Positions 9,266-43,671 of a stretch of DNA of 64,000 nt are shown here, one piece after another. Within the stretch, counting starts at the first letter, position 1, and each line of letters starts with the position of its first letter. Where the stretch lies: positions 2,609,341 to 2,673,340 of the forward strand of contig CAVYYE010000003.1 in NCBI GenBank assembly GCA_963772655.1. The letters are read 5' to 3'. This DNA is from an uncultured delta proteobacterium (lineage in GTDB: Bacteria; Myxococcota_A; Polyangia; Haliangiales; Haliangiaceae). The notes below the pieces were generated by a model. It was not told the origin of the DNA and did not search any database. It worked only from the letters and a program-made list of their open reading frames with translations. A program made the position numbers and the translations under genes.

Positions 9266-10150
9266 CTAGCCCAGCGACGGCAGCGGTTCGCGCGACGCGC
9301 GCCACGACGGCGGGATCCCGTCGAGCCCGACCGCTCCGACCACGATTCCTCCCACCATCGCGCACGTGGTGTCGATGTCGCCGCCGACCTCGCCGCACGC
9401 CCACAGCGCACCGACGTAGTCCGCGAGGTGAGTCGCCGCACACCACAGCGCGAACGGCACGGTATCGGTCGCGAGCACGTTGCTGCCGTTGCCGAGCTCC
9501 GCGGCCACGGTGATCGGCTCCTCTCTCAACATGCCGGTCGCGCGACGCACGCCATCGCGCACGGGGCCGGCCGGGGTCTTGGCCATCACGGCCTCGAGCA
9601 ACCCACGCGCGTCGCGCTCGCCGGCGAACACCGCACCGGCCGCCACCGCGATCGCGATCGCTCCTGCGACGCCGTCGCGGTGTGCGTGGGTCGGTGCCGC
9701 CGAGCGGCGTGCGTGCTCGACCGCATCGTCGAGCGAATCGGCGAAGTACGCCCCGATCGGTCCGGCGCGCATGCCGCCGCCGTTACCGCACGACCCCTGG
9801 CCGCGAAACAGCGCGCGGGACGCCGCGTCGTAAGGCGTGCCGGCGGCGATCTGCCCGAGCACCTCGTGGGCACCGCTGCCGTAGCCGCGTGCCGGGTCGG
9901 CGAGGTAGCGACTCGCGAATGCCTGGGCGAGCACTTCGGTGTCGATGCCCGCGTGATCGCGCAGCACCTCGACGATCGAGAGCGCCATCGCGGTGTCGTC
10001 GGTCCACATCCAGCGTCGGGAGCGAGGGGGCCGGCGATCCGACAGCGCCTCGACGCGAGCCTGCGCTCCCTCGTGAAGGAGCTGCTCGCCGAATGCATCG
10101 GCCACCGATAGCCCCTCGAGACTCAACACCGCGCGCTCGTCTGGCTTCAT
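9266..10150 (-). CDS. ADP-ribosylglycohydrolase family protein (DraG-like)
   Basis: WTDDTAMALSIVEVL and later DTTCAMVGGIVVGAVG motifs typical of ADP-ribosylglycohydrolases; start set at MKPDERAV because the upstream part of the ORF overlaps the convincing + strand hydrolase gene. Confidence 0.8.
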   Translation of the reverse strand: MKPDERAVLSLEGLSVADAFGEQLLHEGAQARVEALSDRRPPRSRRWMWTDDTAMALSIVEVLRDHAGIDTEVLAQAFASRYLADPARGYGSGAHEVLGQIAAGTPYDAASRALFRGQGSCGNGGGMRAGPIGAYFADSLDDAVEHARRSAAPTHAHRDGVAGAIAIAVAAGAVFAGERDARGLLEAVMAKTPAGPVRDGVRRATGMLREEPITVAAELGNGSNVLATDTVPFALWCAATHLADYVGALWACGEVGGDIDTTCAMVGGIVVGAVGLDGIPPSWRASREPLPSLG

Positions 10151-10171
10151 GGTGTACCTATCACTCGTAAC

Positions 10172-10822
10172 ATGACTCCCCCGCCGCGGTTCCTCTACCT
10201 CCACGGCTTTGCCTCCGGGCCAACCTCGAAGAAGGGGTGCGCCTTCAGCGAGCATTTTGCCCCACGCGCCGCCATCGAGCGCTTGAACCTGCGAGTGCCG
10301 TCGTTCGAGCACCTGCGCTTGTCGGTCATGATCGACACCGTGACCCGGGCGCTCGGCGAGGCCCGCGATCGTGCCGTCGTGATCGGGAGCTCGCTCGGGG
10401 GGCTGACCGCGGCGCGTTCGGCGGAGCGCGATCCGCGGATCGCCGCGCTCGTGCTGATGGCGCCCGCGTTCCAGATCGCCGCGAGGTGGCGCGAACAGCT
10501 CGGCGACGAGCTCGAGACGTGGCGGCAGACCGGATGGCGCGAGGTGATCGATCACACCACCGATGCACCGGCGCGCGTCGACTTCGGTTTCTTCGAGGAT
10601 CTCGTGACCGTCGATGTCGACTTTCCCGACGTCCGCGTTCCGACCTTGATCCTTCACGGTCGTGGCGATGACGTGGTGCCGATCGAGCACTCGCGCCGGT
10701 TCGCCGCCGGCAAGCGGCACGTCGAGCTGATCGAGCTCGACGACGGTCACGAGCTCGTGCAGTCGATCCCGATCATCCTCGGGCACGCGGAGCGCTTCCT
10801 CGCGCCGTGGCTCGGAGCCTGA
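10172..10822 (+). CDS. alpha/beta hydrolase, YqiA-like esterase (UPF0227)
   Basis: FLYLHGFASGP ... GSSLGG nucleophile elbow ... LILHGRGDDVVP ... DDGHEL; 216 aa. Confidence 0.8.
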   Translation: MTPPPRFLYLHGFASGPTSKKGCAFSEHFAPRAAIERLNLRVPSFEHLRLSVMIDTVTRALGEARDRAVVIGSSLGGLTAARSAERDPRIAALVLMAPAFQIAARWREQLGDELETWRQTGWREVIDHTTDAPARVDFGFFEDLVTVDVDFPDVRVPTLILHGRGDDVVPIEHSRRFAAGKRHVELIELDDGHELVQSIPIILGHAERFLAPWLGA

Positions 10823-10835
10823 GCGCGTGTCGCGT

Positions 10836-11018
10836 CTACTCGCCGCTCGGGATGTGCGGCCCGATCAGCATCAGCAAGAACAGTAGCGCCAGCGAGATCC
10901 ACACGAACGTCATCACCCACTTCGTCGTCCGTGCCGTCGCCTCGCCGCTCTCGAGCCGAGCGTGCGGCAACGGGTCGGTCTGGACGTCGAAGTCACTCTG
11001 ACCAACTGACCGGGGCAT
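10836..11018 (-). CDS. small membrane protein, hypothetical
   Basis: 60-aa C-terminal portion of an ORF with one TM helix (WVMTFVWISLALLFLLMLIG); weak. Confidence 0.3.
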   Translation of the reverse strand: MPRSVGQSDFDVQTDPLPHARLESGEATARTTKWVMTFVWISLALLFLLMLIGPHIPSGE

Positions 11019-11112
11019 GGTCTTGAGATGCCGGATCCGGCGGCCAACGACGTGCGGCGCGTTGTCACGGGGAGGGTGTCCACCGCCCGGCCGGCTCGTG
11101 GCTCTTGTCGAC

Positions 11113-11517
11113 ATGCGCGCCGCCTACTTGCTCTCGTTCGCCCTCGCCGCATGTGTGGCCCATGCCGCCCCGGCGCCTACATCTTCGCGACCCGTGATGG
11201 TGGCCGTGGCCGGGCCCGCACCGGGTGTGGCGCAGTCGTGCAACGCCGGCGGAACCTGCGATTTCGACTGCGATCAGGGCAACTGCGGGTTCGTCTGCGA
11301 GGCCGGCAGTATCTGCAACGTCGAGTGCGATGGCGGGGCGTGCCTTGGCCAGTGCGAGCCGGGAGCGACGTGTAACTTCGAGTGCGACGGCGGGGGCTGC
11401 CGGTCGCTGTGCGACGGCGGTTCCACTTGCAACCTGGAGTGCGACGGTGGGGGCTGCCAGCAGGCGTGCGAAGGGGCGACGTGCGCCCGCGACTGCGAGG
11501 GCGGCGGCTGCGATTGA
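11113..11517 (+). CDS. secreted cysteine-rich repeat protein (four ~19-20-aa C-x2-G-x2-C-x3-C-x2-G-x-C repeats), C-terminal GGGCD
   Basis: Signal peptide MRAAYLLSFALAACVAHA; repeats CEAGSICNVECDGGACLGQ / CEPGATCNFECDGGGCRSL / CDGGSTCNLECDGGGCQQA / CEGATCARDCEGGGCD. Confidence 0.6.
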   Translation: MRAAYLLSFALAACVAHAAPAPTSSRPVMVAVAGPAPGVAQSCNAGGTCDFDCDQGNCGFVCEAGSICNVECDGGACLGQCEPGATCNFECDGGGCRSLCDGGSTCNLECDGGGCQQACEGATCARDCEGGGCD

Positions 11518-11582
11518 GCGGCTCGCCCTAGGCCGGCGTTACAAACGCGCGCTTTGTCGCGGCGGGTGGTACCGTTTTTTTC

Positions 11583-12116
11583 ATGCCGCTGTTCGTCGCG
11601 GTCGGGCTCACGATCATGATCGCGGTCGCGATTTCGTGGGTGTGGGTCTCGCGAGTACGCGTGACCGCCAAGCGCGTGCCGGTGATGACCAACCGGATCG
11701 CGTTTCCGGGTGGTCTGCGACTGCACGAGCCCGAGCTCGCGCTGGCGCGACTCGACGAGCCCGAGGAGATCGCGATCCCGTTCGAGAAGGCGACCCTGGT
11801 GATCGCGTATCCGCTCTCGACCCCGGCGTCGGTCGAGATCGTCGCGCCGATCGCACACGGGTTCACGCGTGCCGCGCTCGTGCGCGCGATCTGCGAGGAA
11901 TACGCCCACGTCTACGAGGCGGAGGCCGGCACCTCCGCGATCGAGCCGGAGGTCAGCGAGGAACGCAAACGCAACCGCACCGATGGCGCGTACGGGATCT
12001 GGGGCTACGACCTCCAGGATCTCGTGCTCACCGCCCTGCGGTGGACGCGGCGCCCCGACGGTACGGTCATGATCGACCTGCACGTCGAGAGCTGGGGGTT
12101 GCGGCTGACGCCCTAG
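11583..12116 (+). CDS. membrane-anchored hypothetical protein
   Basis: N-terminal TM (MPLFVAVGLTIMIAVAISWVWV), globular remainder; lies between the two Cys-rich repeat genes. Confidence 0.5.
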   Translation: MPLFVAVGLTIMIAVAISWVWVSRVRVTAKRVPVMTNRIAFPGGLRLHEPELALARLDEPEEIAIPFEKATLVIAYPLSTPASVEIVAPIAHGFTRAALVRAICEEYAHVYEAEAGTSAIEPEVSEERKRNRTDGAYGIWGYDLQDLVLTALRWTRRPDGTVMIDLHVESWGLRLTP

Positions 12117-12551
12117 TCAGTCGCAGCCGCCGCCGGAGCAGGTGGCATTGCACACCGACCCTTCGGCACACCCGAGGTGGCACTGCCCACCGCTGCACGC
12201 CGAGTTGCACGTCGCCCCGGACGCGCAGTCGGTCTGGCAGTTCCCGCCGGAGCAATCCGTGTTGCAGGTCGCACCGCCCGCGCACGCGAGCTGGCAGTTG
12301 CCACCGGAGCACGACACGTTGCAGGTGGCGCCACCCTGACAGCTGAACGCGCAGTTGCCCTCCGGGCACGTCCAGTTGCAGACCTCCCCGGTGCCGCACG
12401 CGGTGCCGGCCGCGCCGGGTCCAGGAGGAGGACCTTCTTCGACAACCGCTCCCGGTGGCGGTGGGGGCGGTCCCGCCGGGCCCTGCGGTGGAGGCGTCGA
12501 GACGACGCAGGCAACGAGGAACGACAGCCCGAGAGCGAACCGGAGCAGCAT
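12117..12551 (-). CDS. secreted cysteine-rich repeat protein, paralog of 11113-11517 (five repeats), C-terminal GGGCD
   Basis: Signal peptide MLLRFALGLSFLVACV, Pro-rich linker, repeats CQGGATCNVSCSGGNCQLA / CAGGATCNTDCSGGNCQTD etc; same terminal GGGCD as paralog. Confidence 0.6.
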   Translation of the reverse strand: MLLRFALGLSFLVACVVSTPPPQGPAGPPPPPPGAVVEEGPPPGPGAAGTACGTGEVCNWTCPEGNCAFSCQGGATCNVSCSGGNCQLACAGGATCNTDCSGGNCQTDCASGATCNSACSGGQCHLGCAEGSVCNATCSGGGCD

Positions 12552-12580: not shown

Positions 12581-14776
12581 TCAATCGGCGCGCCGGAACG
12601 ATAACGTCGACGCACCCGCGAGCTGTGCGTGCGAGATCGCCGCAGCATCGACCGGCACGCCGTCGAGCTCGATCGTGCCGACGTCGATCCCGGTGCCGTC
12701 GGCGGCGCCGTCGAAGTCGATCACGAGCTGGTGGCCGCCGACGGTGACGCGCGCCTGCGGGAACCGGGGCACGCCGAGGATCCAGCGATCGCTCCCCGGG
12801 ATCGGATAGACCCCGAGCGACGACAGCACGTACCAGGCACCGAGCGTTCCTCCGTCGTCGTTGCCGGCGACCCCGTCGGGGCCATCGCCGTACAGCGAGT
12901 CCTCGATCCAGCGCACCCACTGGCGCGTGAGGTCGGGGCGGCCGAGCTGGGCGAACAGGTACGACGCGTTCATGTCGGGCTCGTTGCCGTGCCAGTAGTA
13001 CGGACGCGGGAAGTTGGCGGCCGACTCGTCCGAGGTCTCGAAGTCGACCTTGGCGAGTTCGAAGAACATCTCGAGCTTCGCGATCGCCGCATCGCGACCC
13101 CCGAGGATCTCGGCGAGTCCATCGGGATCGTGGGCACCCGCCATCCACAGCGAGTGCCACGCGTTGGCCTCGGCGTAGTCGTCGCCGAGCTCGAGGGGAT
13201 CGAACTCGCCGGCGGGAAACGAACCGTCGGCGTTGCGCCCGCGCAAGAAGCCGACCGCGGGATCGTAGAGCTGGCGCCAGCCCTGACTGCGCGCGAGGAG
13301 CGCGTCGCGATCGCCCGTGTTGCCGAGCGCACCGGCGAGGTTCGCGAGCGCGAAGTCGTCGTGCGAGAACTCGGTGGTCAGCGACACCGTGCGGCCGGCG
13401 GTGCCGTCGCGCGGCACGTAGCCGAGATCGAGATACGGCTCGATCCCGCTGCGGCCACCGCGACCGGCCGCGGGCGGCGATGGATCCATCGCGGCCGCGC
13501 GCAATCCCGGCCACGCGCTGTCGGCGTCGATCCCGTCGACACCGCGCATCACCGCATCGGCGATCGCGATCTCGGCGCTGGCACCGAGCATCGTGCCGGT
13601 CTCGCCGATCGCGAGCGGCCACTTCGGAAACACGCCGGTGAGCTCCCCGAACGCGACCAGCGAGCGTGCGGAGTCGTGGGCGCTCGCGGGCGCGAGCCAC
13701 GCGTAGAGCGGCTGCACCGTGCGATAGGTGTCCCACAACGACAGATCCGACATCTGTCGCCAGCCGTCGCTCGTCGTCGGGTCGTGACCGGCGAGCACGA
13801 ACGAGTGATCGGCATCCTCGATCACCGTCGGCATCAGGAACGCGTGGTAGAGGCTGGTGTAGAACGTCCGGCGTTCGGCATCGCTCCCACCGGTGACCAG
13901 CACCGACGACAGTCGCGAGGTCCACTGCGCCCGTGCGGCGGTCGCCACCCGCTCGAAGTCGACGCCATCGGGGAGCTCGGCGGCGAGGTTCGCGCGCGCA
14001 CCCTCGAGCGAGACCAGCGAGATCGCGACGGCCAGCTCGATCGGCTCGCCGCCGGTATCGATCGCCGCGCCGGTCGCCCACGTCGCGATCGTGGCCAGCG
14101 GTCGCGACCCGGCGATCGCGAAGTAGATCGTGTAGCCGCCGTAGCGCCCACTCATCCCTCCGAGGTGGTGGAGGTAGCCCGTGAGCTCGCCACCATCGGC
14201 CGTGATCGCCGCATCGTCGACGGTACCGCCCTCGAGGGTCTTCGCGAGATCGATCACCACGGCGGCGGCGCCGGTGTAGCGGTGCACGCCGACGTGCGTG
14301 GTCGCCGTCAGCGCCACACCGATGCCGTTGTCGAGCGTGACCTCGTAGCGACCCGCCGACGCGTGCTCGTCGTCCTTGGAGAACCGCGTCTCGTAGTCGA
14401 CGACGCTCGTCATCGCGGGATCGAACGCGGCGACGGGCATCACGGAGAGCACGCCGTAGTCGGTCGCGCCGGCACCGTGGAGATGCACGTGGGAGAACCC
14501 GCGGATCTTGTTGTCCTCGGCGTAGTACCCCGAGTAGTGGAGGAAGTTGACGGTGCCGAACGGGCCGCTGGTGTCGGGGCCGAGCTTGACCAGACCGTGC
14601 GGGACGGCCGCCCCGACGAAGCAGCTCCCGTGGGCGAAGCCGAGCCCGCCGGTCCCGATCCGCGGGTCGACATAGGCCACCGGGTCGGTGACCTCGGGCG
14701 CGATCACCGGCTCGGTGAGGTTGTCACCACACGCGAGCACGTGAACGAGCGCGACCACGGCGAGTGCCCCTCGCAT
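12581..14776 (-). CDS. glycoside hydrolase family 92 (putative alpha-1,2-mannosidase), lipoprotein
   Basis: GH92 N-terminal motifs DPRIGTGGLGFAHGSCFVGA..LGPDT, GFSHVHLHGAG; ~730 aa; lipobox VLACGDN. Confidence 0.85.
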   Translation of the reverse strand: MRGALAVVALVHVLACGDNLTEPVIAPEVTDPVAYVDPRIGTGGLGFAHGSCFVGAAVPHGLVKLGPDTSGPFGTVNFLHYSGYYAEDNKIRGFSHVHLHGAGATDYGVLSVMPVAAFDPAMTSVVDYETRFSKDDEHASAGRYEVTLDNGIGVALTATTHVGVHRYTGAAAVVIDLAKTLEGGTVDDAAITADGGELTGYLHHLGGMSGRYGGYTIYFAIAGSRPLATIATWATGAAIDTGGEPIELAVAISLVSLEGARANLAAELPDGVDFERVATAARAQWTSRLSSVLVTGGSDAERRTFYTSLYHAFLMPTVIEDADHSFVLAGHDPTTSDGWRQMSDLSLWDTYRTVQPLYAWLAPASAHDSARSLVAFGELTGVFPKWPLAIGETGTMLGASAEIAIADAVMRGVDGIDADSAWPGLRAAAMDPSPPAAGRGGRSGIEPYLDLGYVPRDGTAGRTVSLTTEFSHDDFALANLAGALGNTGDRDALLARSQGWRQLYDPAVGFLRGRNADGSFPAGEFDPLELGDDYAEANAWHSLWMAGAHDPDGLAEILGGRDAAIAKLEMFFELAKVDFETSDESAANFPRPYYWHGNEPDMNASYLFAQLGRPDLTRQWVRWIEDSLYGDGPDGVAGNDDGGTLGAWYVLSSLGVYPIPGSDRWILGVPRFPQARVTVGGHQLVIDFDGAADGTGIDVGTIELDGVPVDAAAISHAQLAGASTLSFRRAD

Positions 14777-14833
14777 CGCCGCCGACTCTACACAACCAGG
14801 TCGGTGGTCGTCCCGATAGAACCGGTCGCCGGC

Positions 14834-16990
<2,157 letters not shown>

Positions 16991-43165: not shown

Positions 43166-43671
43166 GGCGCGAGCATCGCACGCGACGCCGAAAGTGCCGA
43201 ACCCCCTCCACGCTTGCGCGGGAAGGGGGCTCGTCGGAGTTGTCTTTGGTGGCGTGATCGGGGTGTCGGCGTGTGCGAACCGTAGCGTGCTAGGCCGGCG
43301 AGAGCCGGGGCGACGAGCTAAGCGGTCATTCCACACAACGTCGCGACGACGGCGACCAGCGCGTTCTCCTTCTACAGCTTACGGATCGTCACGTGCGTGC
43401 AACAAATGCGACCTCCATCGGTAACCCGGCTGACTCGAAGAGTCCCGTGGCTTTGCGTAGCCCGCTCGCGCGGGGGTTGCCGTTTCGTGGCGCGGGATGT
43501 TCCCCGCCTGGTGTCGATACGACTACCTCGAAGGACCTGCCCTGATACGAGTCGCTGTTCTCACTCTCCTCCTTTGGTTGGTCGAAGGTGATTGATTCCA
43601 CCGTAACGGAAGCGAGTGCGAGTTGTCACGAGAAAATCGACGACGAGAGATCGTCATCGCGCAAGCGCGCG

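Follow-up and report, generated by a model that had tools for sequence, protein, structure and literature searches.

We analysed two small genes, here named A and B, that lie within a stretch of 64,000 nucleotides from an uncultured delta proteobacterium of the Haliangiaceae (contig CAVYYE010000003.1, forward-strand positions 2,609,341 to 2,673,340; this whole stretch is called the window in the following). Their products are paralogous proteins, each built from a Cys/Gly repeat of 19 residues that follows a lipoprotein-type signal sequence and is predicted to fold into a beta-solenoid. We are confident in this combined architecture, i.e., a lipoprotein carrying a beta-solenoid. The complete explanation that we favour, to which we give slightly better than even chances, is that A and B would be tethered lipoprotein solenoids, locked by disulfides, that form a binding or spacer module of the cell envelope. 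The features of both genes are as follows (positions in the window).

11113..11517, plus strand: gene A, putative Cys-repeat lipoprotein, 134 amino acids (open reading frame (ORF) and translation)
11152-11154, plus strand: codon of Cys14 in the signal peptide of A, putative lipobox L-A-A-C (motif read from the sequence)
Residues 15-42 of A: Pro/Ala-rich linker
11239-11514, plus strand: predicted solenoid domain of A, Cys43-Asp134, 20 Cys, net charge -14
11314..11458, plus strand: tandem DNA repeat of 57 nucleotides (nt), i.e., 19 codons, in A, 2.5 copies, 76% matches (Tandem Repeats Finder)
12117..12551, minus strand: gene B, putative paralogous Cys-repeat lipoprotein, 144 amino acids (ORF and translation)
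12507-12509, minus strand: codon of Cys15 in the signal peptide of B, putative lipobox L-V-A-C (motif read from the sequence)
Between lipobox Cys15 and domain Cys52 of B: Pro-rich linker
12120-12398, minus strand: predicted solenoid domain of B, Cys52-Asp144, 20 Cys, net charge -6
12169..12326, minus strand: 57-nt tandem DNA repeat in B, 2.8 copies, 72% matches (Tandem Repeats Finder)

Repeat, paralogy and export signals of A and B

Both reading frames lie where a preceding sequence-only reading had placed them. Its proposal that A and B are paralogues made of a ~19-residue Cys/Gly repeat holds on the DNA as well as on the protein level, i.e., both genes show the 57-nt period (in A also seen as the direct-repeat family D1 with spacing 57) and the full-length proteins align with 40% identity (E-value (E) 7e-25). 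Each protein contains 21 Cys in total, one of which is part of the signal peptide (Cys14 in A, Cys15 in B). The remaining 20 repeat the spacing 6,4,5,4 and both proteins end with GGGCD, again as had been read from the sequence; the sole departure is the last rung of A, which is one residue shorter and thus yields a spacing of 5.

We also considered that A and B might be spurious ORFs of a GC-rich genome. This is ruled out by family-wide conservation, by insertions and deletions of whole rungs and by the GC content at third codon positions (GC3), which is 0.82-0.83 in the two frames (0.83 for A) and 0.68 for the whole window. In the alignment of 32 family members, no domain Cys varies, and neither does the lipobox Cys. 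Given this invariance and the GC3 values, A and B are real genes and their periodicity is non-random. The domain of A is 76-79% identical to its two closest orthologues and 66-79% identical to A-like proteins in general.

The N-termini (A: MRAAYLLSFALAAC, B: MLLRFALGLSFLVAC) have the make-up expected of signal peptidase II substrates, i.e., a short signal whose n-region is positive, whose core is hydrophobic and which contains a lipobox of the form [LVI][ASTVI][GAS]C. The lipobox was assigned by motif reading alone; among the 32 aligned sequences, the position before its Cys is A or G with at least 90% conservation. A and B are thus probably lipoproteins with a Pro/Ala-rich tether. Since the lipobox Cys is invariant in all 32 sequences, we prefer lipoproteins over freely secreted proteins. 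The earlier description as secreted proteins with signal peptides is thereby refined, the signal peptides being probably of the lipoprotein type. In Myxococcus, lipoproteins with Lys at position +2 are retained in the inner membrane. This position is Val or Gly in A/B, which would suggest sorting to the outer membrane. We infer that both proteins are located in the cell envelope.

A consensus of the repeat unit was compiled from 170 units and reads G1-A2-T3-C4-N5-Phi6-E7-C8-D9-G10-G11-x12-C13-x14-x15-x16-C17-A18-P19, i.e., Cys at positions 4, 8, 13 and 17 and hydrophobic residues at 6 and 15, with T3, N5, E7 and D9 conserved at 58-78%. Neighbouring residues of a beta-strand point to opposite sides. 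Applied to the unit, this alternation would place C4, Phi6 and C8 of one strand and C13, x15 and C17 of the other in the core, such that T3, N5, E7 and D9 form a conserved outer face and small, variable residues a second one. On the conserved face, the Asp/Glu of A are replaced by Ser/Asn in B. The net charge of the domain ranges from -8 to -15 in most members of the family.

The boundaries of the Cys arrays are informative about possible disulfides. In the family members that we examined, the domain opens with a Cys of the C17 type and closes with one of the C13 type, and each full-length member has either 16 or 20 domain Cys. In the wider family, 188 of 243 arrays start and end on an arc spacing, for which ~25% would be expected at random, and the number of Cys is even in 195/243 arrays. 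We favour disulfides between sequence-consecutive Cys because these boundaries and the Cys parity then leave no Cys unpaired, i.e., the 20 domain Cys would give 10 disulfides. A same-rung scheme (C4-C17) or a four-Cys metal site, on the other hand, yields broken rungs at both array ends. We hold the consecutive map to be fairly probable for A/B. In it, a first bridge C8-C13 (C-x4-C) would span the D-G-G arc and a second bridge from C17 of one unit to C4 of the next (C-x5-C) would span the A-P-G arc and thereby join successive rungs. All-consecutive pairing is what a DsbA-type oxidase produces during export; a periplasmic enzyme of this type could form the A/B disulfides vectorially while the chain is exported.

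Predicted fold and family context

We ran AlphaFold2 for A on the 32-sequence alignment. Residues 41-134 are modelled with a predicted local distance difference test (pLDDT) value of 95-98, and the linker receives low values of 48-60. The model alternates strands of six and four residues with a period of 19 residues. That is, the domain of A is predicted to be a two-sheet beta-solenoid, or beta-roll, of about five rungs with one 19-residue repeat each. The predicted stacked parallel strands with one repeat per rung are those of the right-handed parallel beta-helix/beta-solenoid class. Of the disulfide-laddered solenoid or beta-helix that had been suggested from the Cys spacing, the solenoid is thus supported by the prediction (pLDDT > 95).

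A Foldseek search of the PDB gave nothing significant (best E = 1.4), and the A/B family profile had 0 hits among all PDB sequences, antifreeze proteins included, for E up to 10. The antifreeze-like or metal-binding character suggested by the sequence-only reading is speculative. Comparison with individual structures provided the following values, each line listing the comparison value and then the deviation.

Ag43 (7koh): 10.5; 12.5 A, no close superposition
DUF2807 'putative adhesin' proteins, several of them lipoproteins (3pet, 3ljy, 6x62_DX): 8.6-9.6; 2.1-2.4 A over 94-96 residues
TibA: 8.6; 2.2 A
CsgA fibril (8enq): 8.6; 8.4 A, no close superposition
Marinomonas antifreeze protein (3p4g): 7.8; 13.4 A, no close superposition
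RTX blocks: 7.6-7.9; 2.0-2.1 A

Scans of A and B against Pfam and NCBIfam (including TIGRFAMs) with E up to 10 returned no family match, such that the profile search proposed along with the sequence-only reading names no family. They also exclude the Myxococcus cysteine-rich repeat (TIGR02232 / DUF4215), which matches neither protein; the period of 19 residues likewise agrees with the earlier view that A/B differ from this ~40-residue repeat. No Pfam match to RTX/HemolysinCabind was found for A/B, whose unit consensus is without GGxGxD, and the Pfam models of DUF2807 (the GIN domain) and DUF3060 hit neither protein. In two distant members (P0269 and P0289), a DUF3060-type segment is located N-terminally, apart from the C-terminal Cys repeats, as read from their sequences. 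Insect TmAFP proteins are defined by a 12-residue repeat and by similarity to solved members, while A/B have a period of 19 and the mentioned 0 PDB hits. A PADLOC scan of A, B and the neighbouring gene M (see below) gave nothing meaningful, nor did NCBIfam for M, and tblastn of a plasmid collection yielded no match for either A or M. Our literature search, which covered disulfide solenoids, Cys repeats of Myxococcota and lipoproteins of Kofleriaceae, returned nothing on the A/B family. Two candidate papers turned out to be unrelated to it, namely on diatom trail proteins with DUF4215 and on knotted solenoids of Caulobacteraceae.

The Cys-repeat family is rare. For A itself, a word-indexed search of 5.8 billion clusters recovered only 35 relatives; the family profile raised this number to 77. 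None of them is more than a hypothetical protein, and the few with organism names stem mostly from metagenome-assembled genomes (MAGs) of Kofleriaceae or other Myxococcota. An exhaustive HMMER scan of 1.84 billion representatives gave 797 matches for E up to 1e-3 and 267 for E up to 1e-10. Longer proteins mostly carry the repeat at the C-terminus, as a module of extracytoplasmic architectures. Its fusion partners include OmpA (four cases), DUF3060+OmpA, VWA, CARDB, FG-GAP and a DUF676 esterase, and in a Ser/Thr kinase fusion the repeat is placed after the membrane span and before a PEGA domain. All fusion partners are extracytoplasmic domains.

Two groups of matches stand out. Six members of a sister subfamily (P0026-P0028, P0033-P0035) have 16 Cys and long Asp/His-rich C-terminal tails (e.g., HESHAEDGDHDDDHDNDGDHDDDHDDD), which suggests metal or cation binding. 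Four eukaryote-like proteins (P0308, P0282, P0224, P0167) show the same Cys spacing 4,5,4,6-7, with no Pfam model over their repeat regions; P0308 also contains a 7tm_2 domain of adhesion G-protein-coupled receptors (GPCRs) and a GPS-like motif. Compositional bias may inflate the match scores of these four, and either homology or convergence would account for the shared spacing.

Gene neighbourhood and inversion of the A-M block

The following features of the surroundings are relevant for A and B.

10836..11018, minus strand: small tail-anchored membrane protein, 60 amino acids (60-77 in its family), MPRSxxQSDF ... GPHIPSGE, divergent from A
11583..12116, plus strand: gene M, single-pass membrane protein, 177 amino acids, strongly conserved domain of ~150 amino acids with invariant RNRTDGAYGIWG
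12581..14776, minus strand: gene of the GH92 alpha-mannosidase family, Pfam GH92 + GH92N, E = 1.7e-122, directly upstream of B
11113..12116: A-M block, inverted relative to its flanks, breakpoints at ~11019-11112 and 12116/12117 (comparison with six related genomes)

GH92 has a lipobox of its own (V-L-A-C; N-terminus MRGALAVVALVHVLAC). It is separated from B by 29 base pairs (bp) on the same strand, and the gap to the B-like gene in the related locus L007 is 2 bp. These two gaps suggest a GH92-B operon, i.e., B is probably co-transcribed with the GH92 lipoprotein in the clade of the window. In L004 and L005, the gap between GH92 and the Cys-repeat gene measures 59-65 bp. Throughout the closer clade, GH92 is always directly upstream of and co-directional with the Cys-repeat gene(s).

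M has at least 299 homologues with 59-98% identity and is confined to Kofleriaceae/Haliangiales MAGs of 28 GTDB species. It matches no Pfam model, and its family profile has 0 hits in the PDB. Its N-terminal hydrophobic helix agrees with the membrane-anchored protein that had been described for 11583-12116. As five positive charges directly follow the helix, the N-terminus is probably outside and the conserved domain in the cytoplasm. A and M are 65 bp apart in the window and are probably co-transcribed; the link of M to A and B is positional only. Directly 5' of the M start codon (11561-11582) we observe a T7 run, in a genome with 68% GC, that is preceded by a weak 5-bp hairpin. As a terminator between A and M this candidate was rejected, since it comprises just the weak hairpin and the T run and folds like shuffled sequence (z = 0.18).

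The small tail-anchored protein matches no Pfam model. In relatives, its gene directly follows either M or the Cys-repeat gene. A motif scan of related loci found it in 11 of them (7 distinct ones when near-duplicate contig pairs are merged), all with a Cys-repeat gene, and in none of the loci that have M alone.

We compared this arrangement with relatives (L003-L010, L028) in which the M protein shares at least 73% identity with that of the window. There, a Ser/Thr kinase gene, GH92, (B-like), A-like, M and the small membrane protein gene follow each other on one strand. In five of the six distinct arrangements, M follows the A-like gene after 45-81 bp; L005/L006 have an inserted PD40/Tricorn gene and a gap of 1.6 kb. 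A B-like copy is present only in L007/L008 among these loci. B-type orthologues are known from L007/L008 (61% domain identity) and L040. Since the domain of A is 66-79% identical to those of A-like proteins, that of B 61% to its L007 counterpart and those of A and B only 47% to each other, the A/B duplication is older than the split from the L007 lineage.

In these relatives, the synteny check proposed earlier recovers a co-directional order without bracketing. In blastn alignments, 11238-12114 matches the plus strand of L003, L005 and L007, and the flanks 9278-10822 and 12648-16953 match their minus strand. The layout A->M<-B is also found in three independent metagenome contigs (L040, L041 and L042; 86% and 97% nucleotide identity), for which reason we consider the inversion to be real and clade-specific. 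The stop codons of M and B abut with 0 bp between them. We note a 49-nt inverted repeat with 71% complementarity (11469-11517 and 12117-12165), formed by the GGGCD-encoding 3' ends of A and B, whose arms exactly enclose M and its leader. We rejected the idea that A and B recombined to cause the inversion, given that the ancestral genes are direct repeats and that the present inverted arms are only 49 nt long with 71% identity.

In more distant Kofleriaceae, a Cys-repeat gene precedes M on the same strand at a distance of 0.5-2 kb and is often followed by the small gene. Of the 19 M loci for which 2.5 kb or more of upstream sequence is available, about 11 show no Cys-repeat gene nearby, and L038 has a Cys-repeat gene without M. 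A distant Kofleriaceae clade carries the Cys-repeat gene without a nearby GH92 (L001, L002, L017, L020, L022, L024, L038). The region is a long, vertically inherited syntenic block and no mobile island. The idea that A, M and B form a conserved unit is not supported by this comparison, i.e., the ancestral layout is a tandem GH92-(B)-A-M, the bracketing stems from the clade's inversion, and many M loci are without a Cys-repeat gene.

Other small Cys lipoproteins (LxAC lipobox, 4-6 Cys, helical-looking) are encoded in the same Kofleriaceae neighbourhood, namely at 7159-7710 of L002, 6333-6866 and 7616-7996 of L038, 14055-14930 of L005 and 8873-9268 of L007. Further away in the window, a c-di-GMP-I riboswitch aptamer is located on the minus strand at 43417-43491 (Rfam RF01051, 52.8 bits compared to a gathering score of 35).

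Explanations and known systems

In the explanation that we favour, A and B would be exported by the Sec system and then lipidated at the lipobox Cys. In the mature proteins, a rigid beta-solenoid of ~95 residues would be joined to a lipid anchor through a tether that is flexible, Pro/Ala-rich and ~25-35 residues long. Each of the five rungs would be one 19-residue unit with two strands and two tight Gly-rich arcs, such that Cys and one hydrophobic pair fill the core. The product would be a beta-roll-like rod that is locked by disulfides in place of Ca2+. It would expose a polar/acidic ladder (Thr-Asn-Glu-Asp in A; Thr-Asn-Ser/Thr-Ser in B) and a face of small residues, and could act as a binding surface or spacer for a cation, a glycan or an envelope polymer. 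A non-enzymatic module is preferred because no catalytic motif is seen in A/B, for which the family scans detected no enzyme family, and because other proteins, of adhesion, wall and sensor type, carry the repeat as an added module. This binding or spacer role in the envelope is proposed tentatively.

Several points weigh against this explanation. The lipoprotein call is based on motif reading, and the family matches include no annotated homologue that would be informative on function. The putative disulfide map was deduced from array boundaries and Cys parity, and stacked Cys in beta-solenoids are not always bonded (PMC13123833). With regard to the neighbours, the conserved domain of M is probably cytoplasmic and direct contact with A or B is therefore unlikely. 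Furthermore, the linkage of both GH92 and M to the Cys-repeat gene fades with phylogenetic distance, such that the neighbours may reflect inherited gene order and not shared function.

Two other explanations start from these neighbours. The polar ladder could capture polymers rich in mannose and offer them to the GH92 enzyme encoded next to it, similar to the surface glycan-binding lipoproteins of polysaccharide-utilisation loci in Bacteroidota. The directly upstream, co-directional GH92 of the closer clade (gaps of 2 to 65 bp), its own lipobox and the fact that beta-helix folds commonly bind carbohydrates (according to the structural match list and general knowledge) are in accordance with such a partnership. 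Still, the Cys-repeat gene is kept without GH92 in distant Kofleriaceae, and the domain has neither the aromatic platform typical of glycan sites nor a match to a carbohydrate-binding-module family; we thus consider this explanation unlikely. Alternatively, A, M and B, together with the small membrane protein, could form a dedicated envelope complex for which the bracketing marks a functional three-gene module. The Cys-repeat gene is indeed upstream of M on the same strand wherever both are present (69-81 bp in the closest relatives), and the small tail-anchored gene always accompanies it. On the other hand, the bracketing results from a clade-specific inversion, B is missing in most relatives, M and the Cys-repeat gene each occur without the other (M in many genomes, the Cys-repeat gene in L038), the M domain is probably on the cytoplasmic side while A/B are exported, and the surrounding genes belong to one long, vertically inherited block. 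We judge such a complex to be quite unlikely.

The remaining explanations concern the solenoid itself. If its four inward Cys per rung were reduced, they could coordinate Cu(I), Zn or Cd in the core, i.e., the protein would be a thiolate metal store or buffer that resembles the Cys-lined cores of copper storage proteins, here within a beta-solenoid. A Cys content of ~21% in the domain, with the Cys predicted to line the core, the Asp/His-rich C-terminal tails of the sister subfamily (P0026-P0035), which are typical of metal-binding proteins, and the existence of unbonded Cys in solenoids (PMC13123833) speak for it. Export as a Sec-dependent lipoprotein, however, leads into an oxidising compartment, the domain of A offers no His or Met ligands and the conserved neighbourhood no metal-resistance or metal-homeostasis genes. 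In addition, the array boundaries are offset by one Cys, which breaks the four-Cys rungs at both ends, while consecutive pairing leaves none unpaired. A metal store is thus improbable. We assign a similarly low chance to the idea that the 19-residue unit is an ancient extracellular domain of bacteria and animals whose Cys core is a redox- or metal-active column (a thiolate/metal wire or a redox switch). The 4,5,4,6-7 Cys spacing in the ectodomain of the adhesion GPCR-like P0308 would fit, and such a column would explain why Ser/Thr kinases recruited the unit to their periplasmic sensor side.

Finally, the stacked Thr-x-Asn and Glu/Asp ladder could be a lattice-matching surface of a Ca2+-dependent or ice- or mineral-binding adhesin, comparable to what the Tenebrio antifreeze protein has in its T-C-T face or the ice adhesin of Marinomonas in its Ca2+-bound repeats of 19 residues. 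This is very improbable, as the family profile resembles no solved structure, antifreeze proteins included, for E up to 10, Foldseek found nothing significant, and both the GGxGxD Ca2+ motif and a Pfam HemolysinCabind hit are absent. Moreover, Thr and Asn ladders are common as purely structural features of beta-helices, there are only five rungs, and many relatives derive from general soil MAG sets.

If the predicted disulfide-locked solenoid holds, A and B would represent a bacterial family in which each 19-residue rung carries two disulfides and which is absent from Pfam, NCBIfam and the PDB. The domain would be a candidate hyperstable scaffold of interest to protein engineers, and several hundred envelope proteins, among them OmpA-, VWA- and kinase-linked ones, could be annotated with a new domain. 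The analysis also flags a conserved envelope gene set of Kofleriaceae, i.e., the GH92 lipoprotein, the Cys-repeat lipoproteins, M and the small tail-anchored protein. All this would gain weight if a disulfide-stapled beta-roll were confirmed or the Cys column found to be redox- or metal-active.

With regard to known systems, the Cys-rich beta-solenoid is a known type and its fold class is common, while the A/B repeat family is unnamed and has no solved relative. The RTX beta-roll (GGxGxDxUx; adenylate cyclase toxin blocks 6sus, 9p6c) is alike at the fold level only, since the arcs of A/B are presumably stapled by disulfides and not by Ca2+ and their signal is that of a lipoprotein and not of type I secretion. 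DUF2807 beta-helix lipoproteins (3pet, 3ljy, 3jx8; Legionella Dot/Icm core 6x62_DX, 7muc_AM) have no sequence or profile relation to A/B and, unlike these, hydrophobic cores with few or no Cys. The autotransporter beta-helices of Ag43 and TibA also use 19-residue repeats, but they are three-sided, much longer and exported by type V secretion, without a Cys ladder and with no sequence relation found. The Myxococcus cysteine-rich repeat of the TraA stalk shares with A/B that a Cys-rich unit is repeated in tandem in extracytoplasmic proteins of Myxococcota; its unit of ~40 residues and its Cys pattern differ. To our knowledge, beta-solenoids with a disulfide core have been described only for a handful of antifreeze proteins. 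Among them, the Tenebrio molitor type (12-residue TCTxSxxCxxAx) is, as predicted for A/B, a small beta-solenoid with very high Cys content in which regular disulfides fill the core and a T-C-x motif directs Cys inward and polar residues outward. A and B differ from this insect protein in their period of 19 instead of 12 residues, in the four Cys per rung and in their context of a bacterial lipoprotein.

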